From Psammoneis japonica (lineage: Eukaryota): a stretch of 64,000 nucleotides of DNA. The stretch covers positions 124,001 to 188,000 of the forward strand of contig QPGO01000116.1 in assembly GCA_008632985.1 (NCBI GenBank), read 5' to 3'. Of this stretch, positions 11,161 through 53,974 are shown piece by piece. The position numbers were made by a program, and so were the translations under genes. Under the pieces are notes generated by a model. The model was not told where the DNA came from and made no database searches. It worked only from the letters and a program-made list of their open reading frames with translations. Numbering within the stretch: the stretch's first letter is position 1; every line of letters begins with the position of its first letter.

Positions 11161-11179
11161 GCAGTAGACACGGTAGAAA

Positions 11180-14100
11180 AGATGCCCACCAAAGTGCAAT
11201 CACAATGGACACTTCCTGCCTCCAAGCATGGCGTGGGTTGTTGTCACAGCATCCCCATGCCCCAGCCATTTGTTGCCATGCAAGCTGCCACAGATGCAAA
11301 GGCACCAGCACAACACTGCCAGCACTGGAAGAGTGGCTGATGGCTGCTGTTCTTGAGAGCCAAAGCACAGCAGGGAGGAGTGCGGGGTGATGGAACATTT
11401 GAGCAGTGTTCAACTTCTTCTTCTTCATCCTTGTCAGAGAGTCAGAGGAGTTGCAGTTCTCAAACAACCGCCACATTGAAGCTGGGGAAAGTTTGCCAGA
11501 TCAGACCACTGCACAGTCTCTTCTTGTAGAGCCAGCGCTGCCCCGGGGAATGTGCTCATTGCAACAACCGCTGCCACAGTCTGGACTCTGCTGCTCCAGA
11601 TTGAGTGCAGCAAAGGTCAAAGCTCTTCTTTGAGCAAGAGCACTTGGCCCCTTTGTGCAACAAGCTCCTCAAAATCTGGACAAAAAAAAAAGCTGCCATC
11701 AGAAGATTGTTCTGGCCGGCAACTCTGCTGGGGGATTGGAAAACCCCAGTTTTTCAAGTTTTGGCTGCTTTGCACATCACCCTCCACTCTGTTGGCAAGA
11801 GGAAATTTCCTGGTTCACCTTGCTCTGAGACAGAGGTTGGTGAGGTCTTTTTTCTCATTGACGAAGAGACATGTGGATGCTGTCAGCTCAAGAAAGGCAA
11901 AAAGTGCCACATCAAAAAGCTGCTTGACAATTGACAATTGTTCCACAATGGCAAAATTCTTTGCTCATGAGAACCCACCACCTTGGAGGCCAACCAACTG
12001 CCACTCCCTGCATCAGCTGCTCCATCACCTGTCAGCACTGTCACCAGCACATCCACAGAGTTCAAGAAGTTTTTCCCATGCTTCTTGCACTTGCCAGCTT
12101 GGGAATTGAGTGAGCTTGAACTTGTTTCTGCCAGAGGAGAACACATGGATGGATCCAAGCATGACCACAATTTTCTCCATTTGTTGGGAGGCATCAGCAT
12201 TGGAGCACAATGCTGCACAACCACTTGAAGAAGACATGTCATCAAGCAATGAAATGCAGTTGTTGCAGAGATGATCTGTGCAGCAGCTTCTGTTGCTGTG
12301 GATGATGACCCACACATGCAGAAGACCTGGACAAACAACATCAGCAGCTTTGTTCTTGTGTCCCCTTGCGTTGACATTCCACAACAGGTTGAGAACAGTT
12401 TGCATGCTGATGGCACATGAAATGATGAGCCTCTCTGGTCACATCATGAGCATCTCCATGAGTTGGCAAATGGCTGGCAAGGCAAGTCAAAGACATTGTG
12501 GGAAATGATGATCTTGAGAGATTGGTTGTGTGCATGTTGACAACTGGCCCAAGGGCACCAGTGCCATGGTGGGAGCACCTTCCTGTTTGAGGAAAAACAG
12601 GTCTGCAGCTGGGAGCCCACTTGGTCCTTGCCAAGAGACAGATTGATTGTGGTGCTGTGCCTGATGTGTCAAAGATCAGCTGTCCAACCAAAACAACATT
12701 TGGCCTTGCTGACCACACCACTGTTTCACAGTGTTTCACAAACAGCACCTGGCACTTTAGATGACTTGGTGGCACAGTTGCCCACTCGAGCCTTCCATTT
12801 TTTTCTTGCACTCTGAGAAAAGTTGCAAGTTGATCCTGGAGATCATGTGTCAACCTTTTGTTTGTGCGTCCTGTCAACTGCAAAAAATGCAGGACACCCA
12901 CCAAAGATGAGCACCTTGAAAAGTGAAAAGGGTGAATGATTTGACCACCCAATTTTGGGCCACCAAAATGACACAAAGTTGCAGGTTGCAGGGACAGATG
13001 TTGCCAGAGTGCAGGCCAATGCACACATCTTTGTTGCTGCAATCCCTGAGGAAGGCCAGAAGAAAGCAACTCTAAAGAATTTGCAGCTGAGCCTGAAGCC
13101 AGCTCCTTCACAACAGACAGTGACTCAGCCTGTCTCCATGAACTCTGCAAAGCATCACTTTTGCCTCACTGTGTTGCAGAGCTGCAGCACCAAGAGCTGG
13201 ATCCAAGCCCTGCAGACCTGTGTTTGTTGCCAAGGACAAAAGCACACTTCAACAGCTGTTGCCTGCTGGAGTGCAGTCTTGTGCTCTGAGCCATTGCTTG
13301 CACAACAGAGTTCTGTGCTGCAGACCGCTGTTTTGGTTGGAGGCAATTTGTGCTGAGTTGTTTGAGCCAAATCTGAACAGAGGAGAAGAGATCTCACCAA
13401 ATGAAAAACAGTGCAAAAATAATGGGCGCCAGCTGCAAGTGGTGCAGTGACAGGCTTTTTGATCAGCATCACCCAGATGCATGTGTGATGATGAGTGTCC
13501 TGGGGTTGGCAAGTGAGGGTCACATCCTTGAGCAATTTGTGGCTCTCTTGCTTGTCATTCTCAATTTTCTTGATGTGTTTGCAGTGCACTCCATCAACAT
13601 GGTCACCAGAACTTGCTCATTTTCTGGGAATGCACTTGTTTCCATCTGGTGCAGAGCTGATCCCATGTGATGGTGAACAAGGATGATGGTGATGAAAGAA
13701 CACATCTGGTGAGGTTGATCACAGCTGGGAGAGGAAAATTGAGTGGTTGGAACATGAAAGTGCCACCAAGCAGAAAGAGGGCTGGTGAACATCATTGTGA
13801 TGTGTGAGCTGAAGGCAAGGAAGCAAGTGAGGAAGCATCAGAGGAGTGATGTGGATGACAAGTCAAAACTGGCATGACAGACAGTTTAGCACCAGAGCAT
13901 TTGTTGGTGAAATGACCTTTGCTGTTTTCACACAACACAGTGGTGGAGAATGAGCAAGGCAACAAATGAACGGATTTGGCAAATGCAGTTCAAACCCTTG
14001 TGGAGGCTGCCAACTGCCAAAAAACACTGTCACATGTGCAGAAAGACACTGGCTGGGTTGCCATCATTCTTCAAAGTGGCAGCAGAGCAGAGACATGACA

Positions 14101-17100
14101 AAATTCCATGTTGCCTCATCTGCCAGACCCTGCCAAACTTCTTCCCCTCTGAGAGCATGCAAGAGTGCTGTCAGACAAAAAGGCAAGCTTTGGCACTCAC
14201 AAAGTCAAAATCAACACATGGAATGAACACAACAACAGCCTCTGTGCAACATGCTTGAGTCAGACAACTCATCCAAACCTTGTGATCAATGTGTCACTCC
14301 TTTGCTGTGTTGTTGTGTGTGCCAAAATTTTGGAAAGAAAGGCTGCAAGGAATCAACCAATGGATTGGTCATCTTTTGTCCAGCAGTGGGAACCAGGTTT
14401 CTGTGACATGACACAAACCACCTGCACCTTTCAGAACCAGCAGCATGTGTTGCAGCATCTGTGCCAGATGTGACAGCAGCTGTGCCAGATGCAGCAGCAC
14501 TGCAACAGCCAAGGAAGGAGCTTTTGCCAGAGCAAAAGCCCTGCCATGGTTGTGGTGTGTGCCAGCTCAAGAACTGCAGCAGGAATCTGAAATGTTTGAA
14601 GATGAAGCACATTCCCACCAAAACAAAAAGTGTGCAAAGTTGGAATGACTGCCAGCTGGCGATGCTTCTTGACAGAGGAGGGAGCAATTTGAGTCAGGCC
14701 CAACTGAGCTGTGCATCAAGTGCAGCACCATGATTGATCTCTCTTCTCTTGGCAAGGGCCAAGGGAATTTCTTTGGGCAGCAAACCCCTTTTCCCACAAA
14801 CTGGAAGGTGCTCCTGCAATGCTGCCCTTGGCCCAACTGCCAACATGGCTGTGCACCACCACAACCAAACTCTCAAGGTCCTTTTCTGCAATGATGGAGG
14901 CTCATGACATGACCCAAGGCTCACCTTTTTGTGTGCCCCATCAAGCAGATGACAAGCTGGCTGGTCATCATGAGGTTTTGCTGCATGAAGCTGTTCTCAC
15001 CCTCTGGTGAAACATCAGCACAGGACATCAACATGCAACAAAAGCTGCTGATGGTGTTCTCCTGTTGTCTTCTGCGCATGGATCATCATCAAGAAGATTG
15101 ATGAAAACTGAGTGGCACATCTCAACAGCAGCTGCTTTGCATCACTTGACCATGTCCTGCTTCTTTGCACAATTGTGCAGCACTGTGCTGCTCCAGCTCA
15201 TGACAAGCAGCAATGCCCCTCAAAAGGAGAAAGTGTTTTGGTCAAGCACATGTGGAGCCATCCATGCATTCTTGTTTTGGCTCGCCACTTTGGAGGAATG
15301 GTCAGTGAGGTCAGAGGTTGCCACAGCAGGAGGAGGTTTGTCATCAGGTGCAAGTTGAAGGCCTGAGCAAATGTTTTGAAATGGTGAACACCCACGCCAG
15401 TGGGGACCAGAGGGGCTTGACTTTGCAAAGAGGAAGGAGGTGGAGCAGCTGGCTCTCTTGAGAAATTTCTGACATTTCCAAGGAGCTCCAGAGCTGCAAA
15501 AAATCTGGCAGAGGCAATGGAGTTCACAGCATCTGACACTTCATTGGAGATTCCTGGAATCAGTGGGTGGGGTTGACCTTGCACCGGCAAGGCATCCTCT
15601 GGAAGGTCACTCATCATGCTTTGAAGGGTCTGAGCAAGGTGCAAGCAAACTTGCTTGTGATGTGGTTTCTTGTGCACCAAGACATTGAAATGGGGAAAAC
15701 TGGCCCTCCTCTTTTCATGGGGATGACATCCTGAACACCGTCAATGAGTTTGAGCCAGATGCAAAGGCAGAAATTGACAGTTTTGGCACAATGCAACAGG
15801 GGAACCAAACAAGTTGTTCCGGCAAGTTTGCATTGGTGCTGAATGGCCTTGCCATGCGCTTCAGCTTCAGGATGAGAACAGCGCCAATGGAAAAGGATTG
15901 GGAGCCACCTGGATTGAGTTCTTGGCAGGAGAAGAAATCTTCTGGGGAATGAGCCTGATTGGTGATTTTGCACAGCTGTTTGGCACAAGGCACAATGGCT
16001 TGGAGTTACTTGATGACAACATCAGTGGAACAGCATTGAGGGAAATGCTCAGTGATGTGCAAGGTCTGTGGTGATGGGGCGTCTCATCCCATTCATGATG
16101 CTGTGCACAAATGGAACTGTCTTTGAGAGTCTCACTCACAAAAGAAATGTCTCAAATGTCAGAGAGGGCAAAAGAGGTGTGGAGGTGATGGACAATGACA
16201 TGTGCAGGCTTGTGATGATGAGTGCCACCAATGCAATGAATCACAAAATGTTGAGAGTGAGTTCTCAGACAGGAAAAAGCAGCAACAGCACTGACAACGA
16301 TGGGGCTGATGCAGCAAGTGGTGGTGTGTGGGTGCTGGTTGACTTCTAAGGTGCTAGAAGGCTCATGATGCAGCATCAGTGAAGAATTTTGCCACACGAA
16401 AATCCCAAGCAGCAGCTGTTTGATGTGACATTTTTCACCTTTGAACCAACACAGCCTTCACACATCTCTTGGTCAATTGGGAAAAACCTCACCAACTTGT
16501 CTTGCAGCAAAATGAATCAGGAAATTTGACCTCTTTCCAGCAGCATCAGAAGGTGACAGTGCAAAAAGCAAGGTTGGAACCAGGATTTCCCACCCCCCCA
16601 GCATCATTGTCAGTGTCAAAACAGCACTCTGAAAGCAGCACTTGTTTGCCCAGATTTCAAAGAGCTTGTTGCACAAAGGGGCAGAGCACTCTGGCTCAAA
16701 GTGCGCGACATGCTGCACAACCATGGCCCTTGCAGCGAGCGAGCCGAGAGTGGGGATGATCATGAATCCCACACGAAGAAGAAGAAGAGACTGCAGTGGT
16801 CTGACCAGGCAAATGCCATGGCTCCAGCTGCTCCCCAAGAACCACCATTCCCCTGGCAAGAATGCAATGAGAGAAGTTGGACACTGCTCAAATGATGTTT
16901 CATCACCCCATGCTCCTCCCCGCCCCGATCGCTGGCTCTCTCAACAAAACAACAAGAAGAGCTGCTCGCTCTCCCAGCTCTCACTCTCCTCCTTCAGTGC
17001 TGCTGATGCCTCAGCATCCACAGCAGCTTGCATGGCAACAATGGCTGGGATGTCAGGGATGCTGTGACAACAACCCATGCTGCGCTTGAAAACCCTTGCA

Positions 17101-17140
17101 GTGGAAGTGTCCATTGTGACTTGTGATTGTGCCGAGTTTC
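11180..17140. mobile_element. Degenerate element bounded by long (about 850 bp) diverged inverted repeats; TpA- and CpG-depleted
   Basis: About 11190-12040 is the reverse complement of about 16280-17130 (e.g. tcacaatggacacttcc / ggaagtgtccattgtga; cccctttgtgcaacaagctc / gagcttgttgcacaaagggg). No intact transposase recognised. Confidence 0.65.
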
Positions 17141-17418
17141 GATCTGGAGGAAAAATTGGTTCATGTTTTTCTTTCTTTTGTCATTTTTTTCATTTCTCCA
17201 AATTTTTCATTAGAAAAACGACGCCAATTGAAGATTTCGCGTGTGTACGGAGACTGAGGTAACATCCTACATACCTAAATCCTACACGCCTTCCTGGTAT
17301 AATTCAGCTTCACCTTTCTCTGCGCTTTTTTGCTTGCTGCTCATGGCATGGCGGCGGTGTTTTGCGGAGGTCTCTGAGCTTTACTCAGCAAGAGGGTCAA
17401 ACTCCTATCAGTCTCAAC

Positions 17419-36784: not shown

Positions 36785-36960
36785 AGCCGCCAGCGTTGAC
36801 CTTTAAACCCTTTCTTTCTTTTATACGAAGAAACAACTGCCTTGGAGAAAGACCTGACATTTGAAAACGCTGATTGCGGTTACTGTACTTATTCTACACG
36901 TTTAAGTTACATATTTTTGGTGATATATTGCGTGGCGATAGTTTGTGTGCTGATAGTTCT

Positions 36961-37700
36961 TTACCTATCCAGAGCAGCGTCTCTTGCCAGTACTTCTGGT
37001 GAAAACTTGACTAGAAACACAGCCTTTTCCTTTCTCGGAGGCAAATTGGTGGTTGCACTCCCGCTCCCCGCCATGTTGGAGCCGGGTGCGTTCGCTGCGC
37101 TCATTTCACCCTCTTCCAAAGCGACACTGTGTGCCGTGACACGAGCTGTAAAGCCCGCTCCGTCCAACACTCCCGCAATAATCCCCGAAAGATATGCATC
37201 GACACTTAATTGTCCCAAATCAGAAGGCACCGACACGTAGATGGAGGTAATGGGTTCATAGTCAACAATCATGAATTCATCCGCATGATCAATACTCCGT
37301 TCCAACGAATCCGCAGCCTTTCCAAAGAGAGACTTCCAAACCGACGATGACACGAATTGTAAAATATTCATCAATCTCGTTTCTCGTTTGGATTCACGAG
37401 CGCGATACGCCAACAATTCAAGAACTTTGAGACCGACGCCGTATCCGGCACTCTCCAAACGCCGCTCCAGCTCCGAGATGCTCGCAACGCGACTCTGATG
37501 ATACTGAACCAACTCGGAATACAAATATGCAAAAGCACTCAACGACACGGATCCGTCAGCACTGATTGAGAGAGGAATAAAAAAGAATTAGTTGTGCTCT
37601 GCAAACGAGCTAGCTTTTTGCCACTATAAACCTGTCAAACTCACCGTGAGCCTCGTCCACCCAACGGCCGGTCGAGAATGTTTACGTTTGACCGACTCAT
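36961..37700 (-). CDS. TRAPPC5: TRAPP complex subunit 5 (Trs31)
   Basis: MSRSNVNILDRPL exon 1, intron about 37563-37645, then VSLSAFAYLYSELVQY..LERRLESAGYGVG..VWKSLFGKAADSLE..GF.ARVTAH. Confidence 0.93.
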
Positions 37701-38192
37701 TTCGCTCGTTCGCTAAAAATCTAATAAGTACAGGTGGGTGTATTAAAGTCAACTCTACAATATGATCACTTCTGCGGTGATCAAGAGTCCAACACAGAAC
37801 TACAAAGTCGAGTCTTCAACATAAACAGAGGTAAGCGTCTCTGAAATTGGCCATCTTCCATCTCCGCTCCAAATCACCAAAACAAATTCCAAAATCCGGG
37901 TGCAAAACGACCGCGCAAGAGCAAGCAAGGTTGCGCGTGTGCTCCGTCTGTATGTAGCTCCGTCCCTCCATTTCACAATGTCTTACCGGTACTCGCCTAC
38001 GAAGCCCTACACGAATTTGAAATTTTGGATTTTCGATTGCGTAAGCACACATTTCGTGGCATCGGCACGCACTGCGTTACCTGTTACCTCTACAAGACTC
38101 ACTCACTGACGTGCAAGACTGCTTGCGTTGGCATCTCGCTTTTCTGAGTTTTATACATCCGATGTGCAGTGTCAGAGTTCCTTGTTTAGGTA

Positions 38193-39482: not shown

Positions 39483-41050
39483 ACGGTCAGTGCACTTCTA
39501 ATGTCTCCCTGTGCTTGTGGCTAGATCCTGTTTGGGATCAGCATTGCGATAGAGTGCAACATTTTTGTCAGCCTTTCTTGTTGTACGGTGCAACATAAAT
39601 CTCACGGTGTTTCACGAAAAAGTGCCAAGTTGCACACACACAGACAAACGTAATTATTTTTAATCATTATTTTGTTTATAAACATGTCGTCGCTAGCCTA
39701 CTGCAACAGTCTGTATCTCTTTTCTTCAGCAACCAAGCCACGCCCAACGCATTCTTCGTCTAGAGAGGCACTTCCAACAGAAATGGACCCACACCTCACC
39801 AACTGCACCACTGCTGTTTACGACAACCACCATTGCCAGTCCCCATCCACACTCGGGACTTGTTTGACCATTTGTGTGGGGAAGACGGCACAGAATTCAC
39901 AGAAAAAAGTGCTGGGTTGTGTGCTTTTTGTCGCCTTAAAAGTGGAGGTGGGTTTGCAAATGGACTGCCACCACAGTCAGCAAGCTCCACCACACACGTT
40001 GCTCATGCTGAATCTGTTCTTTGCTTGTGCAGGAAAATGCCATCAAGAGAAATGAGACACTCACCCAAGTTTTGCCATGCAATGCAGGGATGAAAATTCA
40101 GTTTGGTCAAGAGGTGCTGTTGGGAAGTGCAAAGCTCTTTCTGTTGTTCAAAAGAAAGCAAGATGTGGCAAGTTGGCCAACTGACAAGAAGTTTTTGACT
40201 CTGAAGAGGATTCGAAGGTGAAAGAAATGTGCACAACCCCCAGGTCTGAGTTTCACCCACTCTCTCTTCCAAGGTCATGTCTGATGTGAATCACACTGGC
40301 AATCTCCAGTGTCAATCACACAAAGAAACATTGAAAGAGAGCTGGTGCATGTTCTTTTCGGCATGTTTGTGCTGGGCATCCTTGACAATGAACTTGAGCA
40401 TTTGCAATGAAAAAACCTTTGTTCAAAAGAAGAGCTGACCATTGATTCTGAGTGAGAGCTCAATCAAGTGCCAGCGACATAAAAATGAAAGTTGATCCAA
40501 GGCTGGCAATGGCACCCAACTGCAGAATGGGCTAAACAAGCTCAGAGCATCTGCTTTCAGCAGTGCAGCAGTTGACCATCTAGGTGCATTGTTTTCAGCT
40601 TTGGTGCTCACATGAAAAATAAAAAAAATGCACACACTCACTGCTCACTTGCTTTCCTGTTGACACACCCAAACTCCATCACTTTTCTGTGGCCTGTTCT
40701 ACATTTCATTCATTGCCATCCAGACACTCAAGGCTTGAGGATCTGATGGCCCAAATGAACAAATGTTCTTGTCAAAGAACTCTTGTCATGCAGAGTGTTG
40801 GCCTGGAAGAAAGGCCACTTCAAGCCCTCACAGCCATGGACATCCATGCCAGCAGAATGACAAGCAAAACGAAAATGTCAGTGGAGCAATGCAAACAACA
40901 AAGAACTGCTGATGACAACCATCACAGCATGTCAACCAGGGCACCTTTCAGATGTGATTCTGAGTCATCCTGCCAAATTTCACAGCCCCAGGCACCGCCA
41001 GTGGTTTGTGACATCTGCGCATCCAAGAGGAGGTGAGGAGCCAAGCAAAA

Positions 41051-41054
<4 letters not shown>

Positions 41055-41090
<36 letters not shown>
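41055..41090. repeat. (CT)n microsatellite
   Basis: Run of about 17-18 CT units. Confidence 0.95.
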
Positions 41091-41095
<5 letters not shown>

Positions 41096-41835
41096 TACCC
41101 AGTGCAAAGCCTGGTCTTGTGGTTGTGCACTGCTGAGATCTCCTGCAACTGTGTGGGCATCATTGTGTTTTGGAAAGTGAACACAACATGGCTGAAGAAT
41201 GGGAAGAGGGGGTCAGCCAACAAAGACCAGGTGCCTGTGCACAAGATCTGGGAGACACAGAAAAAAGGCTCACAGGCCATGCAAGTTTTGTCAAAACAAG
41301 TCCAGTTGTCAATCGATCACAACGCGCTCACAGATGTGTCTTCTTTGGAGCATTGCAAGTCATTCTAACAAATGTCATTGCCACAAGTGCTCCCAATGCT
41401 CCATGGCATTGTTTCATCACAAAGGCGTGTGCCACCCAACAGGAATTGTGACACCCTAAAAACTCATGCCATGTTTGCATCATCAAAGAAAAGACCCCAA
41501 TCCATGCCGAGGTTTGGATGACACAAGTGACAATGATGCAATGTGCAGCTGCAAGTGAAAAACATCAAGAGAATGATGATTTCACAATGTGCACCCAGAG
41601 CAGAGATTGTTGCCTCCAATGTCAGCTGTCGCAGAGCAATGCTGCAGCCTGCGTGCAATGTGGCAAATTTCAATTCTCTCCAAAGCTTGAAAAAAGCCAA
41701 GCAATCTTTTTCAAAGTTGGCAATCTTGACAAAGAGCATGGATGGTTTCATGGGTGACTTTGAGCCACTGGAGCTGTTTCAGCTTTTTCAAATGAAAATC
41801 AAGCTCTCGGCTGGCCTCAAGAACCTTGTCACCCC

Positions 41836-42212
41836 TTTGGATTCATGAGTGCAATGCACCACCAACGGTTCAAGACCCTTTAGACCGATGCCGCACCCGA
41901 CACTCTCCAGCTCCAAGATGCTTGCAATGTGACTCTGATGTAGCTGGTCATGCTGAGCCACTCAATGACACAGATCCATCAGCACTGATTGGAAAGAGAA
42001 CAAGAGAATTGGTGCTTTGCAAATGAGCTGGCTTTGCACCACAAACCTGCTGTCAAACTCACCCCGTGGGCCTCGTCCACCCAACCGTCGGTCGAGAGAA
42101 TGTTTGCATTTGACAGACTCATCATTTCTCTCATTTGCTGAAAATCTAACAAGCACAGGTGGTTGCAGCCAAGTCAAACTTGTCAAGATGATGTGATCGC
42201 TTCTGTGGTGAA
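41836..42212 (-). pseudogene. Decayed copy of the TRAPPC5 5' region (exon 1, intron, start of exon 2, promoter)
   Basis: Aligns to about 37387-37780 (e.g. cctcgtccacccaac, tgtcaaactcacc, cagcactgattg) with deletions and YpR transitions. Confidence 0.9.
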
Positions 42213-42816
42213 CCACACACTGAATTTGAAAATTTTTGATTTTTCGCCGTTTCGGCCAGTTTCTGATCTTTTAGCACCTTTTTCACAATGTGCTTGTCAC
42301 GAAATGCTCTGATTGTTGATTGCTGATTGCACTTCCTTCGATTCTTCTAACAGAGACAGTGTGTGGAGGAATGGCGTCAAGATGAGATGGGATTGTGCAG
42401 CACTGAATGTCTTGGTGCATCCTGCTTCTAGGATGCGGTGCACACGCAGCAAGTTTGCTTGATGCGGCCGCCCTCTGCGTGGCCCATGCGCCTCTTCTGC
42501 GGCTCAACAGGGCCCTCTGGCAGAGCAGCCAGAGTGCTCTCTCTGCTCTAGCTGGAGCTGGCCCCAGCTAGAGAGCTGGCTGGCTGGGACAAGATGATGG
42601 AAGGAGCAACGCGACATTTTGTTGCACATGTCAGCTGCACCATCACGCTCCACATTTGAAGCTTTTGGGCATTGTTCTGCATTGAACGAATGCATCATCA
42701 TCCGCCAAGCTTTTGTTTGTGTGCGCTCGACAACAAATTCGCGAGATCAGTCCAAGAAATGCGGCATTGACATTCATGACGAGATTGCTTAGAAAGTGTG
42801 CACTGCTCACATTCCG

Positions 42817-43288
42817 AGTCGTGGTTCGTCTGTCCACTGACCCAGATTCTCTGTTGTGTCTGTGCTTCCGTCAGTCGGAATTCTCGTTGAAATTCTTTTC
42901 GCGCTACGTCGACTTGATTCTCAAGCCGAATGCTTTGGGAATCACAGGCGGTGCTTTGGAGATCACAGGCTTTGCACAGATGTTGGGCCAACCACAGATT
43001 GGTTCAGCAGCATTTGGATGATTGTTGTGAATGTGGTTGACCCTGAAGTTTGCACCAGTCTCTAGTGCAAACCTGCAGATCAACCTCTGTTTGGGTGCAT
43101 TCAGCAGATTCAGTCTAGGTGGCTCACAATTTGGTCGCCAGCACTTTTGTGAAAGACTGAACACTCGTCACCACTCGTCAGCAGATTCCATCTGCTTGCA
43201 TTCTGCCTGAGGTGTCAATCTGGAGTGGACATCCAGTCGATGCGTCAGGAAGGCACTCGGAGCTTGCGCGGACACGCGAGCTTCGACT
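42817..43288 (+). repeat. 5' LTR
   Basis: AGTCG..CGACT, colinear without indels with the 3' LTR. Confidence 0.95.
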
Positions 43289-43672
43289 GGCCAGTTCGCC
43301 CAATTGGGGCAACTCAACACGTTCTGCGCTTCTGGTTGGGGATGCCCAAACCAGAGCAACCCTGTCAACAGCTCTGATGCCATCAGTGCTCCTCATTGGC
43401 TGTGCTCCGTGCTCTTGACATCAAGCACTGCGACTGACTCCGTCAGCTGAGTGGCTGGTTCCGCCAGAAGGTTCATTGTTGATTTTGCACGTGCACCATC
43501 TCAGGCCCCACTCCACCCCGCGGCCCTCCTGAGACCCAAGAGAGTTCTCCAAGCTTGCACTCTTTGATTGAGAACATCCCAGACGATTGGTCCGACTCGA
43601 CAGCTTCAAGCGTGCTGTCGGACATGGCTGACGACCCCGAAGTGTTCGAGGATCAGCCTCCTGAGGATCAAC

Positions 43673-44121
43673 TGCAATGTGCAGCTACCAACAAGAGTCA
43701 ATGCATCACGGCGACGTGTTGCAGCCTTTAAATGTCACAAAGGGCGTGACGAAAATAACCTTTTGTCTGCATGCATGCTGCGTTGTGAATTCACAGCGGA
43801 GTGGTTCATCTCGCAACCATTGGGCAGGAGGCCAGGGGTTCGAAACCCTGAGTGGGAGTTGTCTGCAGCAACGTTGATCACTGTCGAACGCGCAAAACTC
43901 TGTGCAGTTCTGCATGTTCCTTCGCACGCACCCACACTGTTCCGCCAAAACCGTGCAGTGTCAGCACACGTCAGCAAAGAGCCGCATGGATGCATGATGC
44001 ATGGGGAGGAGTGCAATGCACAGCTGCCAATGAGAGTCAATGTGTCACGGCGACGTGTTGCAGCCTTTAAATGTCACAAAGGGCATGACAAAAATGACCT
44101 TTTGTCTGCATGCACACTGCA
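43673..44121 (+). mobile_element. TRIM (miniature non-autonomous LTR element) nested in the Copia gag
   Basis: 110-bp direct terminal repeats 43673-43782 and 44012-44121, TG..CA ends, PPT ggggaggag before the second repeat, 4-bp TSD CAAC. Removing it restores the gag frame EDQ-PPQGDN. Confidence 0.88.
43794..43850 (+). promoter_or_regulatory. tRNA-type Pol III internal promoter (A box and B box) inside the TRIM
   Basis: cagcggagtgg (TRGCNNAGYGG if TA to CA is reverted) at 43794-43804 and GTTCGAAAC at 43838-43846 in a caggg..ccctg stem; 33-nt spacing as in tRNA genes. Confidence 0.6.
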
Positions 44122-47100
44122 CAACCTCCACAGGGGGACAATCCACCACCTCAGGACCCCAACAACCCAGACGACAAGCCTGTTCCACCCTTGGAACTTC
44201 GCCTGGACGATTCGGATGACGACTCGGACGATGATGATGATGAGCCCGCTGCAGGCTCTGGCATGTCGGAAGACGAGCGTCGCACCATTCAGGCCATGGC
44301 TGCCATGGCAGCCGCGGCGATGCCGAAGATGAAAGTCTGCAAACCCAAGGCTCCTAAGATGGGGGGGGGTTGTCTCCATTGGCTCCACTGAAAAAGTTGC
44401 TTGGACCGGTGGGAAACCCAAGGCTGGCTGGTCCAGATTGGAAACTCCCAACTCCAGTCCAACGTCACCAAATCAGTGTCGCTCCCACCACGTTTCTTCC
44501 GCCCAGAAAAGCAAGGCCCACTGAGTTGCCGGACTTTCAACCAAGTTTGACAAGAAGGGAGATCTTGCAACCTTTGAGAAGAATGTGATGAAGCATCTCA
44601 AGGGCTGCGGTTTGGATGCGGTGACTTGCCTGCAGGACCCCAAGGACTCAACTTCCGTGATGTCTTGTGTTGAAGGACATCCTCGGCACTCCAAATCGAG
44701 CGTCGCCCGTCTTGTCGCACCTCAACTCGCCAAGCATGACTCCTGCGATTCATCCAATGACAGGGACACTGCTGAGTTTCTCAAGAACTCCTTGGAGGCT
44801 AGCCTGGCCATGCAGCTGGATCTGGAGACGGAAGAGTCGGATTGCTTTCCGAAAGTCTGGACAGCTCTCGTCGTGATCCTTCAGAGCACATCCATCGAAC
44901 GCTTCAAGCAGCTCGAAAAGCAGCTAGAGGAACTCAAGCCCTCCCAGTTCGCCGGTCAGGATCTCTCCCAGCTCCTGTCCAAGTTCAAGACTGCGGCCCA
45001 AGAGTTGGATGTTGCGGGTCAGTGCAACCACAAGCTGACGCTTGCCTTGGTCAACGCTTGCCTGGAAGCTGGCGGGGATGGCAAAAACGGTCAGCAGTTC
45101 AAGCACGCCCTTCGCACTGTGAAAGAGAATTTGAGCAAAGCACTTGTTGAGACAGCGCACAAGTCTAAGACAGACGCGAAACGACACCTTGCGTCCAAGA
45201 ACCTTGCCCACTCTCAAGTCATTGGAAAGATCCTGGACCGCTGCCGCTTGTTCAAGAACAACACGCAGTGGGATCCTGTCAAGCATGCGACAGACTCCAA
45301 AGCCGCTCCCAGAGCCTTTGGAAACCTGGCACTTGATCCCTCAGCCACTTGTCAAACGGTTGGAGTTCCACTCACTCAGGCCCAGTTCAATGCTCTCTTC
45401 CAGCAGACGGCTGCTCCCCGCAAGAAGACTCCGGAAAACTCTCCATGCAACAACTGCGGCAAGCTCGGACACTGGGCACGTGACTGTCCCAACAAGTCTG
45501 GTGAGGGCACTGGAAACAACCAAGGCGGCTCAAACCCTGGGCAAAATGGTGGAGGACAAGGAGGAAGGGGCAAGACCCGCTCCGGTGGCAACGGAGTCAA
45601 GGTGGTGACGGAGGCAATGGCAACGGTGGCGCCGTGCGCAACTGGAAGAAGGTCGCGCCTCGTCCCAGACAACCTGAGTCCAAGGTTGCTCAGGGCAAGA
45701 CTTGGCACTGGTGTGCCAAGTGCCGTCGTTGGTCCACCACTCACGGTGCTGCTGAGCATGGGCAGAAGGATGAGTCACCTCCTGCGCCGACTCAGCAGGC
45801 CAACACCCTCTTCCTGGATCCTGGAGCGTGGCACGCGGAATTCGACTTTGAGTTGGGATTCAAGGACGCACCACTTGGACTGTTTCAGGTTGTGCTCACC
45901 TTGATCCACCCTTTTGCATCTCTGCTGCTCTGTGCCACCTTGGGACATTGGTGTTCTCAGCTTCCGGCCAACTGGTGGATTGCTGGAGTCAACGCCATGA
46001 TCTGGTTCGTGACGGTCGTTGCGTCGCATGTCTCATCACATTGGCGCCTCTGTCCTTTGCCCGCAATCTGGTTCCTTCTGCTTCCAGTGGCGGCATTCTT
46101 GCCGTCTAAGTTTGAGCGTGATGCTCGTGCCGAAGCCCCACGTGCTCCTCCTCCACCCCCTCCTCCCCGCTGGGCCACACACCAAGGAACCAAGTTCTCC
46201 AAGCGCCGCGAACGTTGGGGGTGTCGTCGCCTGCGGGAGCTTCAGCCTCGCTGCGGACGCCGCCGTGCTCCACCCAGGCATCCCTCTCTGTCCAACGTGC
46301 CCGTGGGGCGCCTGGTGTCAAGCAGCGGCAGCGCAATCAGTTGTGTGACCTCAGTGAAGAGGTCAAGGCCTTCGAGCGGTCACTCACCTTCATGCACGCA
46401 CGTCCTCTCCTCGGTCGAGAGGGAGAAGCCGGTCGTCCCAAGGGCACCAGACGTTGTAAGAGCACTGCTCTAAAAAGGGGTCCTGATGTTCGTCATCAAG
46501 GTCGTCGGAACCTCAGTGCACCCATGTGTCGCCCTGTTGGTTCAAATGCTGCACACGGTTTGACGCGCTCCCAGCTTGATGCCATCTGCTCCCCAGCAGC
46601 CAAGGCTTGTCTTGCCAATGCTGACGTCCCGTAACCTCTACTTTCTGTTGCTGGCGCTCTCAAGGTGGCGTTCACGAGTCCCAAGGAGACAAAGGAAGTG
46701 GTCAAAGAGCACACCTTCCCGGTCATTTGGGACTCAGGAGCAAGCGTGTCGGTCTCACCTTGCAAGGACGACTTCGTCGGGCCTCTCGAGAAACCACCTG
46801 TCGCCATCCGGCTCCAAGGTGTCGCAAAGGGCCTCCATGTGGCAGGTGTTGGACACGTTGCTTGGTCTTTTGTTGATGTCATTGGGGTGCTTCGGACCCT
46901 GAAGGTTCCGGCCCACTGCATCCCCAAGTCCAAGGCTCGTCTCTTGAGCATGACCAGTCTCTTGCAGACGCACTTGGATGAGTCCATCGAACTGCTGTCG
47001 GACCGCACCATCCTCAGTGGATCCAAGAATCGTGAACAAGGACACAGGCGAGGTGTTGAAGTGTTGATTGAACCTTCAACTAACCTGCCGGTTGGATGGG

Positions 47101-49231
47101 CCTGCGCGAATCAAGCAAGTCAACAAATTTGTGAGGAGTTTCATTTGACGTTGTCGACGATTGTGGAGCACAATCACAATGTCTCACCTGCTGAAAAGGA
47201 GCTGCTACGTTGGCACTTTCGTCTCAGGCATCTGAGCTTTCGAAAGGTGCAATTTTTGATGCGTGCGGGAGTTCTGTCCCACTCCGAGGGCACCCATCAT
47301 TTGCATGAACGCACTTGTCGCATCGATCGTCCGCCCCTTTGTGCCGCATGCCAACATGGAAAACAAAAACACCGTCCCAGCCCCGGAAAGACTTCTCGTG
47401 TCGTCAAGGATCGAGCTGGAGCCTTGAAGAAGGACCAACTGTTCCCCAGTCAATGAGTTTTGGTTGATCACTTTGTTTGTTCCACTCGTGGTCGTCTGAA
47501 ACACACTTTTGGAAAGGAGAGCATAAAACATCAGCATTTGGGCAGAGCAATCTTTGTGGATCATGCATCCGGTTGTGTCAACGTTCAACATCAAACTCAC
47601 CTTAATGCCCATGAAACTTTGACGGCCAAGAACGCGTTTGAGGCCCATTGTCGTGATTGTGGCGTTGTTCCCCAAGAATGTCTGAGCGACAACGGAAAGG
47701 CGTTCACGTCGGCCAATTTCAGGGTTCACTTGGAATCTTTTGCTCAAGTTTCAAAGTGTGCCGGTGTGGGAGCTCACCATCACAATGGGGTTTGTGAACG
47801 AGCAACACACACTGCGATGTCGATCGCGAGAAGTGTGATGTTGCATGCGGCGATCCATTGGCCTGATGTTGCGGATGCCACTCTTTGGCCTTTGGCTGCA
47901 GACCACACTGTTGTGCTTCACAATGTGATGCCAGACCCATCTGCGGGTCTAAGTCCACAGGACATGTTCACCCAGATGCGCAACCCTCACTCTCGGTTCC
48001 AGGATTGTCGTGTTTGGGGGTGCCCTGTTCATGTTCTTGACAAAGCCCTCGCCGATGGAAAGAAACTGCCAAAGTGGAAACCCCGCGCGAGTTGGCATGT
48101 CTGTGTGGGACTCAGCCCCGAGCATGCCTCGTCAGTCCCGCCAGTCTTGAGTCTTGAAACGGGAGCCATCACTCCACAATTCCATGTCGTTTTTGATGAT
48201 TGGTTTGCGACGGTTCCTGCCAATGCCAGCTCGTTGCCTCCCATTGGGTCTCTGGAATGGACGTCTCTTTTCGGAGACAGTGCATGTCAACATGCTGTGG
48301 ATGATGAAGAGCAGGCTGATGTCGACATCCATCAAGAACACCCAGAATGTGAGCGCCGATCCGAGGAAATCCGCGAAACCGTCACCTGCCGTTCGCCTCC
48401 CAAACCCTCACAGGTCCCTCCTCTGGCTGCTCAGGCACCAGTGTCTTCTCCCAAGGCCCCCTCGAGTCCTGTTGTGGAAACCCCGGTCCCTGAGGTGGAG
48501 TCCATGCCTCCACCAGAGTCTCCTGCTGAACCTGTGGCTTCAGACTCGCCTCAGAGGGAGAGAGCACCCGCTGCCAACTCAAATGCCCCACCAAGTCCTC
48601 AGAGGGAGCCTCCCACCCCTCGCAGTCTTTCTTCGGATCTCGGTCAAGAGAGGGAGTCACCACCTGTGGCTCCACCCAGCACACAACGCCCCTCTCCAAC
48701 CCCAGTTCGTCGCTCAACCCGGACTCGCGCTGCGCCCCAGCGGTTTGGATGTGATGGATCTCAGGGACACGGATGCTTGTCTCACTTCGTTGATTTCCAT
48801 CATGCACACAAGTTTGACCACGGTTGCAACATGTCCATGACTGCTCCCACCGTGTGCAAGGCGTCGGTGCGTGAAATCAAGGATCCGGGTGCGCCATCGT
48901 GGGACGAGGCCATGCGCTCTTCCGATCGCGACAAGTGGTTGAAAGCAGCTGAGATCGAGATTGCAGCACTTGTCCATCAAGGAATGTGGGTCGAGGTGCC
49001 TGCATCCGATGCTCGAACCAAGATCCTTCCCGGCACTTGGGCATTTCGTCGCAAGCGATCACCTTCAGGCGAGATCAAGAAGTGCAAGGCTCGCTGCTGT
49101 TGTCGCGGCGATCTGCAGGAAGGAAGTCTGTTTGATGCTTGTGCACCGGTTGCAGCCTGGAGTGCAGCTCAAGCATTTTTGGCATTGAGTCTCATTCTTT
49201 GGATGGCATGCGGCATCCGCCGATTTCCAGT

Positions 49232-49834
49232 CCGCATTTGTTCAAGCAGTGCTTCCTGTGGAAGAACCAGTTTGGATTCATCTTCCATGAGGTTTCAGCT
49301 CAATGAAAGGACCCAAGACTTGTCTCAAGCTCGTCAAGAGTCTCCTGGACTCTCTTCGGCTCCAAAGTTGTGGTGTGAACATTGTCTGCAAGCCTTCTTG
49401 GACTTGGGTTTCATCCAAAGCGAGTACGACCAATGTCTCCTGCTTCGCCATGATTGCATGGTCTGCCTGAATGTCGATGATTGCGGGATCAGTGCAGCGC
49501 AGGAGCCCACCATTGATCAGCTGATGTTTCAGCCGCATTCGTTCAAGCAGTGCTTCCTGCGGAAGAACCAGTTTGGATTCATCTTCCATGAGGTTTCAGC
49601 TCAATGAAAGGACCCAAGACTTGTCTCAAGCTCATCAAGAGTCTCTGTGGACTCTCTTCAGCTCCAAAGTTGTGGTGCGAACATTGTCCACAAGCCTTCT
49701 TGGACTTGGGTTTCATCCAAAGCGAGCACGACCAGTGTCTCCTGCTCCGACATGATTGCATGGTCTGCCTGCATGTCGACGATTGTGGGATCAGTGCAGC
49801 GCAGGAGTCTACCATCGATCAGTTGATGTCTCAG
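49232..49834 (+). repeat. About 301-bp tandem duplication within RT
   Basis: ccgcatt(t/c)gttcaagcagtgcttcctg.. begins at 49232 and again at 49533; both copies encode SSAPKLWCEH..VDD. Confidence 0.92.
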
Positions 49835-50905
49835 CTGCACGAGAAAGGATTTGAATTGACGAAGGAGGGCAGTTTTGCCAAGTTCTTGGGCATCAAGTTC
49901 GAAAGGAGAGACGACGGCACCATCAAGTTGACGCAGAAAGGGTTGACTGACAAGATCCTGTCAGCTGCCGGCTTGATTGATGGCAAACCAAACTCACTCC
50001 CTGCGGCGTCCCAAGCCCTCGGCACCGATGCGGATGGAGATCCCATGCAGGAGGACTGGAGCTGTCCCTCCGTTGTTGGAATGCTCCTGTGCTTGTCCAC
50101 CAATGCCCGTCCTGACATTTCCCTTGCCGTCAGTCAGGTTGCACGCTTCAACTCCAACCCGAAACAGCCGCGTGCAACGCCGTCAAGACTCTGGTCCGCT
50201 GCTTGAAAAGGACGCATGATCAGGGGATGCTGCCATCTCCAACCGGTCGTTTGGATCTTGATTTGTGGGTTGATGCCAATTTGCTGGTCTCTGTCGCTGC
50301 GAAGCAGATTCTGATCCGAGTTCTGTGAGGTCACGCACCGGATGCATCACAACTCTCAGTGGATGTCCTTTGGTGTGGAAATCGCAGCTCCAGTCAGCCA
50401 TTTCCTGCTCCACCCTCGAAGCCGAGTGTCAAGCCGCCTCCTGTGCTCTTCGGACTCTCCTGCCTTTGAAGAACCTGCTCCTTGAGATCGTCTTTACCTT
50501 GGACATCTCCCAAGATCTCAGGACTTCGGTTCGTCCGCGTGTGTTCGAAGACAATCAAGGCGCTCACTGCCTGGCTGCCAACCACCGCATCACCAATCAT
50601 GCCAAGTGTTTTCTCGTCAAGTGGCATTGGCTCTGGTTGCATTGTGATGAGTTCAACACGATTGAGGTGGAATCGGCCGAGCAACTCGCCGATTGTCTTG
50701 CCAAGCCTTTGACTCGAGAGCTCTTTGAGAACAACCAGTTGAAGGTCCAAGGGTGGCGGCACTTTGGAAGCATCGCTTCCTTTGTTTGTCATGTGTTGTG
50801 GCTTGGTCAAGATGTGGGAGCTTTGCTCTGAACTTGTGCCAATTGTGTGAGCTTTCTCGTTTGCGATTTTCTTGTTGGTTGCTGGAATCTGTGAATGAGA
50901 GGGAG

Positions 50906-51377
50906 AGTCGTGGTTCATCTGTCCACCGACCCAGATTCTCTGTTGTGTCTGTGCTTCCGTCAGTCGGAATTCTCATTGAAGTTCTTTTTGCACCACGTCG
51001 ACTTGATTCTCAAGCCAAATGCTTTGGGAATCACAGGCGGTGCTTTGGAGATCACAGGCTTTGCACAGATGTTGGACCAACCACAGATTGGTTCAGCAGC
51101 ATTTGGATGATTGTTGTGAATGTGGTCAACCCTGAAGTTTGTGCCAGTCTCTGGTGCAAACCTGCGGATCAACCTCTGTTTGGGTGCATTCAGCAGATTC
51201 AGTCTAGGCAGCTTGTGGTTTGGTCACTGGCACTTTTGTGAAAGACCAAATGCTCGTTGCCACTCGTCAGTAGATTCCATCTACTTGCATTCTGCCTGAG
51301 GCATCGATCTGGAGTGGACATCCAGTCGATGCGTCAGGAAGGCACTCGGAGCTTGCGCGGACACGCGAGCTTCGACT
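50906..51377 (+). repeat. 3' LTR
   Basis: Preceded by the PPT and followed by TSD TTCCG. Confidence 0.95.
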
Positions 51378-51454
51378 TTCCGCAGAGAAATCAAGTCACA
51401 TCATCCCACTGCACAACTTCATGTTGTAACATGAACTGACAATGACATTGTTGT

Positions 51455-52555
51455 TCATTGTTGGATGTTGACATTCCAAATGAGTCCGAGCTTTTCCAAA
51501 GGCACCAAGAAAAACCAACATGCAGTGTTGCACTCACTGCGTTTGGCCAACCTTGCATGATTGTGATGGTCCAGGTGTTCACCCTCGGTGATGAAATGGG
51601 AAAAAGGGGTGCACAAAAGATCAAAGACAAGAAAAGGCAGACAGCAACCAGATGCACTGGCCTTGAAGTTTGACGCCATGCATTTGTTCTCGGTGTGAAT
51701 TGGTTTCTCGTCGAGGGGTGGCGGATGGTTGTGGCAACGTTAAACCAGAGAGTCATGGTCTGGCAGAGCCAAGAAGAAGCAAAGGCCACAAACAGCGTAG
51801 TGTGCCAAAATGAACTCCATGCTTGGCACTGTCCATGCCCATGCATCCAGAATTCTGATTGCCGGCGTGTCAATTTTTCGCGGTGCAAACTCTTCGTCGA
51901 CATCCTCATGAACATCAAGATCAAAGAAAGAGAAAGCCAACTCAACCCCGTAGAGCAGCGGTGCATGTGGATCGCCGGGGACGTCGCAAAACTTGTGATG
52001 ACGCCGATGCTGTGATGACCACCACAGGGGGCCGCCCTGATTCGAAATTGCCCCCAGTGACAGCATGCATGTGGACGTGATCGGTCCACACTGAAAGGCG
52101 CCGTGAGCAGCGTAGCGGTACAGACACACTGACATGAAAATGTTAATCTTTGTGAGTGCAAGAGCAAGTGATAGTGCTGCAAGCTTGGTTGGAGCATCAA
52201 ATGTCCACAGTAGAATCAACGAGCTGAAGTAGATGGGAACGATGGCAATACAGTATTGCGTTTTCATCCCTTGGAGAGCCGAAAGAAGAATCGACAACAG
52301 ACATACGGTACAAAACGTCTTGATCTCGTAAGTTTCCAGTTCCTTTACCAAGACAAAGATGGCACCAACAAGCGTGGCTACAACCCCCACCGAGAAAAAG
52401 ATGTTGGTTCCACCACGATTGTACCACTTTCTAGCGACAGCATCATCGTTGGTGGACTGTCTCATGACATTGTTTGCGGTAGTATTCATTATTGATGTTG
52501 ATGCCCTTGCGAGTGTAGGCGTTCTGTGTTGTGCGTGGAGGGTGGGCGTGAGCAT
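51455..52555 (-). pseudogene. Membrane fatty-acid (delta-9-like) desaturase, probably disrupted
   Basis: QGGPLWWSSQHRRHHKFCD..DPH (His box 2) and GEHLDHH (box 3). His box 1 reads CLYRYAAH instead of HRYxxH, there are two frameshifts, and the 3' part shows apparent Y to C changes. Confidence 0.75.
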
Positions 52556-52663
52556 GGAGAATTAAGAAAGGAGTTGCCACGATTGTAAGCACGATATTCC
52601 GTGGCACTGGGTCACAAGATTATAGGCGTTGGCGTGAGGCTTATGTGAGGTTTAACCGTCCTG

Positions 52664-53974
52664 ATGTTCAGTGTCGCAGTCGCAGTTACTTATTTAGTGC
52701 AGGCGGGATTAAAATTTGTCGAGAATAGACTTCGAGCGGGATTATTGCGATGGAGCGCTCGTCCACGCTCACAAACATCCTCGTTGTGGGCGAACACGGC
52801 GTGGAGGAGAAAGCCAGTACATGTCAAAGGTGTGTTTGGTGATAAACAAGCAAGGCGCAGCATGACGATATCACAGGCAGCAGAATTAAGCGACAAATCT
52901 CTTATGGATTTCTTCCCATCCTTTGATACGTTGGGAGACGTGAACTATTTTCAAGAACACGAACTCTCTGTCGAGGATTGGCTCCGATATTGCCTCTACG
53001 AGCTACCAGAAAAGAGGAAGTGCCTACTTGAGAACAATGGCGATAGACAGGATGGCATGCCTTCTTTCTTCTCACCTTCTGACGTCGGTCGGGAGCTTTC
53101 TCCAGGCTATGTCCTGCATCCTGTGACTCAAGAGAACCTTGCAGATGCACAAGATCTTCTCTTGGAGATTTTTCCTGACGATGTTGCGCATTTTGAAATT
53201 GTTTTTTCGGTTCTTAACAAGCCCTTTATCGAGTACGAGTTTGACAGCGACATTGAAAACTCTCCCACCGTTGCCAAATCTTTCTTTTGGCTGGTCGTCG
53301 AGAAGGCGACTGGATCGCCTGCTGCCATTTGTTCCTTAATGTACCGTGATGAGGACTATGAAGACTCGCTCTGGGGGAGTTGGTATGGCGTTGGTCCTAC
53401 CTTTCGTCGTAAGGGGTTGGGTTCTTTGGTTCTCCTCTTCTTGTTAGAGAAAAGTGTCTTGTTTCGCAAAAGAACCGCCAAGTTCTTTACTGAGGAGTTG
53501 GATTTTGAAGAGCAAGCCAACAGTTTGTACGACTACGTCGGGGCGAAAGTGTACAAACGCCAGTACTTCCCGAAAGGCAAGTGCCACCGTATCTGGAGGC
53601 AGGCTCAAGTCGGTGATTCGTTGAAGATTTTGTTCGTTGGGCTTCTGCTTATCAACATTTTGCGATTTCTACATCGTTGTCGATGCTTGTTGTGGGAATT
53701 GTCTAAACTTGCTTCACTGCAACAAGACAGCAAGCAACCCGTCACGAGCACGCTTGCGAAGACGACGAAAGCTGATAGGCTACTGGGCTGGCTAATCGTG
53801 CTCCTTCCCTTATCCTTCGTGAAGGAAAACGTGAGTCGCTTTGCAGCCCGACTTCCCGGCATCGTGCAGCAGACGGTCGTATCCATGATCAACCCATTCG
53901 AATCCTCGCAGTCAGAAGTTGTGGAAGTCGCTCCAATGAAAAGCCGCGCCAACCGTTTGGAAAAAGATGACTGA
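52664..53974 (+). CDS. GNAT-family acetyltransferase, paralog 2
   Basis: Core nearly identical to 38193-39482. Confidence 0.75.
   Translation: MFSVAVAVTYLVQAGLKFVENRLRAGLLRWSARPRSQTSSLWANTAWRRKPVHVKGVFGDKQARRSMTISQAAELSDKSLMDFFPSFDTLGDVNYFQEHELSVEDWLRYCLYELPEKRKCLLENNGDRQDGMPSFFSPSDVGRELSPGYVLHPVTQENLADAQDLLLEIFPDDVAHFEIVFSVLNKPFIEYEFDSDIENSPTVAKSFFWLVVEKATGSPAAICSLMYRDEDYEDSLWGSWYGVGPTFRRKGLGSLVLLFLLEKSVLFRKRTAKFFTEELDFEEQANSLYDYVGAKVYKRQYFPKGKCHRIWRQAQVGDSLKILFVGLLLINILRFLHRCRCLLWELSKLASLQQDSKQPVTSTLAKTTKADRLLGWLIVLLPLSFVKENVSRFAARLPGIVQQTVVSMINPFESSQSEVVEVAPMKSRANRLEKDD

Follow-up and report, generated by a model that had tools for sequence, protein, structure and literature searches.

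In a 64,000-nt stretch of the diatom Psammoneis japonica (contig QPGO01000116.1 of assembly GCA_008632985.1, positions 124,001 to 188,000 of the forward strand; hereafter, the window), the element at 42816-51377, which by the order of its protein domains and its long terminal repeats (LTRs) is a Ty1/Copia LTR retrotransposon, raises the question of how it came to lose nearly all of its TpA dinucleotides (TA) and tyrosine codons. This study provided evidence that the loss is very probably the result of a targeted hypermutation of TpA (A:T to G:C), which would have acted on DNA after insertion and on transposon-bearing domains whose chromatin was presumably silenced; this high confidence does not extend to the enzyme. 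An earlier note on the same DNA had proposed a mutator aimed at silenced transposon DNA, and the proposal was supported here by the discordance of the two LTRs, the polarity between paralogs, the tyrosine codons, less-mutated genomic copies, and edges reaching into a host gene.

Extent and Specificity of the TpA Depletion

The mapping of every TA revealed two TA-poor blocks with sharp edges, at about 11175-17210 and 39940-52112, which together hold 56 TA compared with about 709 expected. The other 45.8 kb of the window served as the background, with an observed/expected ratio (o/e) of 0.58 for TA and 1.01 for CG. Counts per kb gave a TA o/e of about 0.45-0.7 across the window, down to 0-0.13 in two stretches in which the o/e of TG and CA reached 1.3-2.1. 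At the 11175 edge, TA occurs each 10-20 nt through 11174, eight times in the following 6 kb, and densely again from 17211. The counts in the parts of the blocks were as follows.

11175-17210: 8 TA observed, 235 expected (Poisson P 2e-88)
39940-42815: 17 TA observed, 112 expected (Poisson P 5e-29)
42816-51377, Copia: 27 TA observed, 333 expected (Poisson P 2e-105)
51378-52112: 4 TA observed, 29 expected (Poisson P 1e-8)

In the Copia element, the TA o/e is 0.06 versus 0.69 for CG. The longest TA-free gaps in the blocks are 2120 and 1475 nt, the latter from 47950 to 49425, and the longest outside them is 256 nt. The absence of TA from 48001-49000, where CpG was said to be still abundant, was confirmed by the count (57 CpG, o/e 0.69). 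It had further been claimed that TA loss is more complete than CpG decay, which is correct, and uncoupled from it, which holds only in part, since both losses co-locate in every TA-poor block (CG o/e 0.11-0.69). The depletion was also wider than previously described, as it includes 39940-42815, 51378-52112, and the second block at 11175-17210.

TA and CG are the only two of the ten strand-symmetric dinucleotide classes to be depleted in the blocks, and CA/TG is the only one enriched. With the block TA o/e at 0.02-0.09, AT remains at the background level, AA/TT is 1.17-1.20 (background 1.15), and TC/GA, at 1.00-1.20 (background 1.14), is not depleted. As TG (786) and CA (748) are about equally frequent in the blocks, either strand can be hit.

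The 56 surviving TA, some of which may be newly created, differ from the background in their 5′ neighbor (chi-square P 3e-13). CTA accounts for 45% of them (background 22%) and TTA for 33% (20%), i.e., 78% versus 42% together; GTA accounts for 18% (32%) and ATA for 4% (26%), and ATAC, ATAG, and ATAT have no survivors. The survivor counts show RTA (R, purine; TAY on the opposite strand, Y being a pyrimidine) as the best target, nearly wholly erased, and YTAR (such as CTAG and CTAA) as the worst.

Both blocks also contain long overlapping stop-to-stop open reading frames (ORFs) on both strands, none of which has a domain; 36 such ORFs of at least 90 aa were counted in the 6 kb of 11175-17210. 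Since TAA and TAG are nearly absent, long spurious ORFs arise on both strands, and TA-free blocks are consequently a trap for gene prediction.

Direction of the Change

Four independent lines show TA as the original state and TG or CA as the product. The features on which these comparisons draw are listed below (RT, reverse transcriptase).

42816..43288, + strand: 5′ LTR, 473 nt, aligned end to end with 50905-51377
50905..51377, + strand: 3′ LTR, 473 nt
42812..42815 and again 51378-51381: target-site duplication TTCC, at both junctions
44525..45904, + strand: gag ORF with CCHC zinc knuckle and no Tyr (PF00098, E 7e-8)
46635..47456, + strand: protease/pre-integrase part of pol (PF13976, E 9e-9)
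47457..49607, + strand: integrase-RT ORF, 716 aa, with a single Tyr
49232..49839, + strand: tandem duplication of 302 nt x 2 within RT, breaking the frame
49592..50206, + strand: second RT piece (RVT_2), with LHVDD replacing a YVDD-type motif (PF07727, E 3e-15)
50274..50831, + strand: C-terminal pol piece with three conserved Tyr now Cys; RNase H region by position only, no Pfam match
37373..37780: normal-composition paralog, the polarity reference

The five Copia ORFs contain one Tyr in 1837 aa (0.05%) versus a mean of 2.66% in 120 homologs, together with 4.2% Cys (versus 1.6%) and 4.4% His (versus 3.4%). The Tyr content of all 120 long homologs is normal (1.9-3.9%), indicating that no hypermutated relative is among them. 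Conserved Tyr columns were anchored by BLASTP and defined by Tyr in at least 70% of at least 60 homologs; in the 20 columns obtained, Tyr was never kept and was replaced by Cys (TGY) in 12, by His (CAY) in 5, and by Asn (AAT), Phe (TTC), and Pro (CCT) in one each, compared with other conserved residues, which were kept in 55-95% of columns. The commonest non-Tyr replacements, namely Thr to Ala (8/29), Val to Ala (4), and Ile to Thr (3), are what TA loss would produce inside codons or across their boundaries. When 347 Tyr positions were examined against 8 intact homologs, the window had 0% Tyr, 41% Cys, and 23% His, compared with about 50% Tyr and at most 6% Cys in ordinary relatives, the exception being one related metagenome locus, L041, with 22% Cys. 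The altered motifs listed in the earlier note were all found in the translations (LHVDD, KSLCGL, KKCKAR, MLLCL, EAEC, CPVHVL, and ECLSDNG), and the single Tyr of the integrase-RT ORF was borne out as well. By codon, TAC had become TGC in 7 cases and CAC in 1, and TAT had become TGT in 5 and CAT in 4; these 17 outcomes showed no strand clustering (9 runs versus 8.1 expected).

The stretch 41822-42211, which lies in the block, is a hypermutated paralog of 37373-37780. The 14 TA of the normal copy correspond to 1 TA, 6 TG, and 7 CA in the block copy (13/14 converted) and its 24 CG to 6 CG, 11 TG, and 7 CA, and all 18 of its TG are still TG. Two control pairs outside the blocks keep TA at 38/41 (paralogs of a GNAT-acetyltransferase-like gene) and 12/17 sites, with transition/transversion ratios of about 1.3-1.6 (80/61 for the GNAT pair).

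Other genomic copies of the element were seen in the contigs of X1, one of three public runs (X1-X3) from one sample and study whose contigs were compared over 38001-54000. Based on the best-supported 40 of 1273 differences, these copies carry the TA-giving letter at nine places where the window reads CA or TG (43893, 43913, 43972, 43975, 47919, 48030, 48514, 51215, and 51217), and the fully conserved Tyr codon at 48030 is TAT in another copy. They also show CG at further CA/TG places of the window. As a near-length protein search with the RT piece gave no close family member (best 52-60% identity), the less-mutated copies are visible only via the run contigs.

Timing of the Conversion

LTRs are identical at integration. 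The present pair differs at 36 of 473 positions, and all 36 differences are transitions, with no transversions; 33 of them lie within shared pyrimidine-purine (YpR) steps. The site classes of the LTR pair were as follows.

CA/TG doublets: 10
TA versus TG or CA: 4
CG versus TG or CA: 9
TA/TA: 1
CG/CG: 16

CpG decay alone would predict about 0.6 discordant doublets, compared with the 10 seen (Poisson P about 2e-9, calculated by hand), which indicates that the doublets stem from about 24 ancestral TA in each LTR, every one of which was resolved independently. Rough hand estimates of the conversion per copy in the LTRs were 0.9 for TA, 0.22 for CpG, and 0.006 for other sites, i.e., rates about 400 and 40 times the base rate for TA and CpG, respectively, which come from small counts and give orders of magnitude only; by the same kind of estimate, CpG decay was about nine- to tenfold slower than the TA process. 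On this reckoning, the LTR pair shows that TA conversion happened after insertion and was fast, with about 90% of the LTR TA sites converted while other sites diverged by about 0.6% per copy. It shows, too, that the decay of CpG to TG/CA is a separate, slower process in the same blocks. The 10 TG/CA doublets and the balance of TG and CA agree with the previous claim that the changes came after insertion and on both strands.

The two 302-nt units of the duplication at 49232-49839 have almost every TA conversion in common and differ by only 1 TG/CA doublet but by about 7 other, non-YpR differences, which per site exceed those of the LTRs (3 in 473 nt). The presence of a single doublet suggests that the duplication may have arisen after TA conversion.

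Targeting of Contiguous Domains

The TA-poor zone reaches about 0.6-0.7 kb past both LTRs, and CpG decay in these flanks is modest, like that of Copia. The features of the two blocks and their surroundings are as follows.

42212..42815: left Copia flank, 604 nt, 6 TA, TA o/e 0.16, CG o/e 0.64
51378..52112: right Copia flank, 735 nt, 4 TA, TA o/e 0.09, CG o/e 0.69; edge uncertain by about 150 nt
51452..52561, - strand: host desaturase-family gene with histidine boxes; its 3′ two thirds are the right flank
39940..42211: older TA- and CpG-poor stretch, TA o/e 0.07, CG o/e 0.20; no recognisable domain; includes 41822-42211
11175..17210: second hypermutated block, 8 TA versus 235 expected, CG o/e 0.11; no Pfam domain

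The desaturase-family gene, over which homologs of 379-411 aa align from 52471 to 51452 on the minus strand, has 3 TA in the 661 nt beside Copia versus 19 in the 449 nt farther off (Fisher P 1e-5), and a Tyr held by 62% of 48 homologs reads TGT. The reading frame of the gene is also interrupted, by an in-frame TAA at 51742 and by a local shift out of frame and back; the X1 contig agrees with this sequence (0 differences). The gene is probably a pseudogene that was made beside the Copia insertion.

The block between 39940 and 52112 is bracketed by two copies of the GNAT-acetyltransferase-like gene, 38125-39524 and 52626-54018, which are about 1.4 kb long and 87.6% alike. They are what is left of a tandem duplication in which repeats invaded the second unit. 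TA and CG are at normal levels in each copy, and the paralog at 37373-37780 is likewise unaffected. As the duplicated GNAT genes and the normal paralog were spared and the unique flanks were affected, the comparison shows a process that tracks a contiguous domain and not sequence homology.

Inverted arms of about 0.8 kb (11198-12018 versus 17121-16304) enclose the second block; they differ by 141 transitions, 49 transversions, and 18 CA/TG doublets, and the ends of the block lie within about 25-90 nt of them. The block may represent an old element that had long inverted repeats at its termini. None of 52 ORFs taken from the six frames of the older blocks and of the right flank (51394-52215) had a credible domain in a Pfam search.

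The CpG depletion of all TA-poor blocks, together with the methylation of diatom transposons described in the available part of a published source (PMC9998398), suggests that the TA-poor domains may be methylated silent chromatin.

Presence in Reads and in Other Assemblies

The contigs of run X1, with a k-mer depth of about 65, differ from the window at one position in 39624-41046, two in 41099-42868, and none in 51348-52939, all of which are TA-poor. The depth of about 65 and a longest contig of 315 kb assembled from 31-mers indicate that the X1 reads are accurate. Accurate reads had been named beforehand as a check, and the X1 contigs did not restore TA in the TA-poor single-copy parts. The contigs of X2 and X3 gave little or no cover of 38001-54000, and no conclusion was drawn from them. 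At 42121 and 42610, the sole X1 contig differs from the window, reading CG for CA and TG for CG, respectively; these differences may be allelic or residual assembly errors.

Among 47 related Copia loci in public metagenome contigs, five (L033-L036 and L042) have a TA o/e of 0-0.18 and a CG o/e of 0.03-0.34 and belong to one family, 70-98% alike; L041 shows a partial effect, and the TA o/e of the remaining 41 is 0.41-0.75. The signature thus also occurs outside the present assembly. L034-L036 and L042 keep 20-37% of the Tyr positions and L033 none. The five loci show on the sense strand a TG o/e of about 1.9 versus about 1.3 for CA, an asymmetry absent in the window, and the surviving TA of L034-L036 is mainly CTAC/CTAT. 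The asymmetry and the Tyr retention may result from a transcription-linked bias or from partial mutation.

Alternative Explanations

Several points weigh against a targeted, post-insertion hypermutation of TpA. The whole account was drawn from one 64-kb window, the domain edges of which are uncertain by about 150 nt. The accuracy of X1 is itself deduced, its library type not being on record, and the runs come from one sample, which may be the assembled one, with no independent strain. Methylation and chromatin state are read from CpG depletion alone. The Tyr codons kept in L034-L036 and L042 could reflect partial mutation or elements evolving under pressure, and the about 7 other differences between the 302-nt units fit awkwardly with a simple order of insertion followed by a burst.

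A sequencing or polishing artefact, in which a long-read basecaller would misread TA as TG or CA at modified bases of heterochromatin, would account for the random choice of TG or CA at each site as strand-dependent miscalls, and the library types are not on record. We regard it as very improbable, since the contigs, whose 31-mers have a depth of about 65, depart from the window by 0-2 differences in its TA-poor single-copy parts, and such a depth with a 315-kb contig is impossible from noisy long reads; in polymerase-based reads, moreover, the letters at modified bases are unchanged. The TA-poor copy also shows frameshifts, CpG decay, and duplication, like real old DNA, and TA-poor relatives are present in other public assemblies. 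Pol-eta-type error-prone repair (WA to WG, W being A or T), which the earlier note had offered as a possible mechanism, and GC-biased gene conversion among copies would each raise G:C at the expense of A:T, but AA/TT and AT are unchanged in the blocks, so the target is TA and not WA or A:T generally, and the single-copy flanks have no conversion partner. Pol-eta-type repair was thus disfavored, and this pair of explanations together receives very little credence from us.

Two further alternatives would place the change before the present insertion, and we give next to no weight to either. A-to-I editing of the element RNA by an ADAR- or ADAT-like enzyme before reverse transcription, fixed at integration, would agree with the preference of RNA editing for U before the edited A, as stated in the available text of a recent preprint (bioRxiv 10.64898/2026.01.13.699255). 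It predicts A-to-G on the sense strand only, but TG and CA are balanced, the LTRs are discordant at 10 TG/CA doublets, and the effect extends to flanking non-element DNA and a host gene; the discordant LTRs and the altered flanks refute this reading. Alternatively, the family or a master copy might avoid TA under selection, e.g., by a TA-reading nuclease, so that the composition was inherited and nothing happened in place; the partial retention of Tyr, mostly as CTAY, in some TA-poor metagenome relatives would be in line with this. In the present copy, however, the catalytic and conserved Tyr are lost (0/20 kept), the ORFs are broken, about 24 TA per LTR are deduced at insertion, other copies carry TA, and unique flanks are affected, so that inherited composition is refuted for this copy.

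Comparison with Known Systems

Mettrop et al. described a similar process in mutation-accumulation lines of Bigelowiella natans, and the following statements come from the available part of their preprint (bioRxiv 10.64898/2026.01.13.699255). In these lines, 231 of 302 mutations lay in integrated giant-virus and virophage regions, and 230 of the 231 were A-to-G or T-to-C, all at TpA according to the authors. These arose at a rate of about 6e-7 per site per generation, in some of the lines only. TpA-poor, CpA- and TpG-rich clusters were enriched in reverse-transcriptase and DDE domains, and an ADAT2-like DNA adenine deaminase was proposed. The available text makes no mention of diatoms or CpG.

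The present case resembles that of B. natans in the near-exclusive A-to-G/T-to-C change at TpA giving TpG or CpA, in its confinement to integrated or mobile regions, in a rate orders of magnitude above the rest (in our LTRs roughly 400-fold, from small counts), and in the long-term TpA-poor, CpA- and TpG-rich signature. It differs in that B. natans belongs to the Rhizaria and the present host is a diatom, a stramenopile; that the giant-virus and virophage inserts of B. natans still hold many TpA (3.3% and 9.2% of dinucleotides), whereas the LTR retrotransposon and older repeats here are near saturation; and that the rates there were measured directly by mutation accumulation, compared with inference from sequence here. 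Spread from the element into flanking host genes, LTR dating, and the RTA/YTAR context do not appear in the available part of the preprint, to which the present data add the dating, the flanking-base preference, and the collateral damage to a neighboring host gene.

The novelty suggested by the earlier note thus stood in part: our literature search found no description of TpA hypermutation in diatoms, but the kind of process had already been measured in B. natans (bioRxiv 10.64898/2026.01.13.699255, available part). The present case is a recently described kind of hypermutation in a new lineage and on a new target class, LTR retrotransposons, with one earlier report from an unrelated alga. It suggests a wide occurrence of the process in marine protists, with transposons among its targets in addition to viral inserts. 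We put at an even chance the broader idea that diatoms and chlorarachniophytes share an enzyme system, guided by silent chromatin, which rewrites TpA in duplex DNA, i.e., a DNA-editing genome defense that would be ancient in the SAR group (stramenopiles, alveolates, and Rhizaria) or widely convergent. If this is true, such a system destroys a new insertion and about 0.7 kb of adjoining DNA before neutral sites diverge by 1%, it is a hidden source of host-gene loss beside transposons, and the RTA/TAY preference is the footprint of its enzyme. We infer a defense function for the hypermutation.

Among other known systems, fungal repeat-induced point mutation (RIP) changes C to T at CpA and creates TpA, and it can leak into adjacent unique DNA. 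It shares with the present case a massive, transition-only, and dinucleotide-specific mutation that inactivates transposons, and the spread into flanks seen here resembles its leakage. The direction here is opposite (TA to TG/CA), and RIP needs a duplication and mutates both copies, whereas the GNAT duplicates and the normal paralog were spared here and unique flanks were hit. RID-like DNMT4 genes occur in many diatoms with unknown function, and nothing in the available part of that source ties them to TpA hypermutation (PMC9998398). The decay of CpG through 5-methylcytosine affects the same blocks (CG o/e 0.11-0.69) and has the same products, TG and CA, but it can account neither for the removal of TA nor for Tyr codons that became Cys or His. 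APOBEC and ADAR of animals likewise defend against retroelements by deaminase-driven hypermutation; they act on cDNA or RNA during replication in a strand-asymmetric manner, in contrast to the integrated duplex DNA, both strands, and flanks affected here.

Possible Enzyme

The targeted TpA hypermutation favored here would be the same process as the TpA-only hypermutation of B. natans. In its enzyme step, an ADAT/TadA-like deaminase that is brought to silent chromatin might turn the adenine of DNA into hypoxanthine, a first choice that we hold tentatively, at somewhat below an even chance. The natural substrate of TadA has U-A-C, which is a lead and not a test. A DNA adenine deaminase, should the enzyme prove to be one, would give engineered adenine base editors a counterpart in nature.

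A second choice, which we consider rather unlikely, lies on the thymine side and rivals the enzyme step only: a dioxygenase of the TET/JBP type would mark T at TpA in silenced repeats by oxidation to 5-hydroxymethyluracil (5hmU) and further oxidised forms, the products would be mutagenic, and T-to-C would be a by-product of an epigenetic mark and not an editing defense. Oxidised thymines mispair with G, and since TA is palindromic, T-to-C on one strand looks like A-to-G on the other, so that the adenine and thymine routes are not separable by sequence alone. The 5hmU of dinoflagellates is made by a TET/JBP homolog; the mark is concentrated in repeats and has been connected with the silencing of transposons, and earlier studies had shown a preference for TA and TC in the replacement of thymine (PMC11572971, available part). 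This system, from a related supergroup, is similar to ours in acting preferentially at TA, in repeats, and in connection with silencing, but it is a base modification and not a sequence change, and TC is also its target (PMC11572971, available part). TC/GA is not depleted in the blocks (1.00-1.20 versus 1.14), unlike the TA and TC preference of dinoflagellates, and no report of 5hmU in diatoms was found in the literature. The remaining weight on the enzyme step goes to something not yet imagined.

Other Observations on the Copia Element and the Window

The element has the order gag (CCHC), pre-integrase/integrase, and RT, with two RVT_2 pieces by Pfam; the integrase core had no Pfam match of its own. 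Its relatives are diatom Copia elements, the best match being 49% identical and the closest named ones, from Fragilaria crotonensis and Cylindrotheca closterium, 41-44% identical. Diatoms are likewise the best named matches of an RNase Z gene of the host in the window, at only 29-33% identity. No Rfam match was found in the window. Two X1 contigs skip one 302-nt unit of the duplication, joining 49534 to 49840.

Between the 5′ LTR and gag, the summed X1 contig depth over 43341-44408 is 35,000-46,000, compared with about 65 in unique DNA and 600-1500 in the remaining Copia. This part contains a 109-nt unit repeated 339 nt apart, without an Rfam match, and it is a candidate satellite, short dispersed repeat, or other sequence. 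At 43893-43975, where CA stands in the window, 37-76% of the summed contig depth has a T instead, which gives TA.

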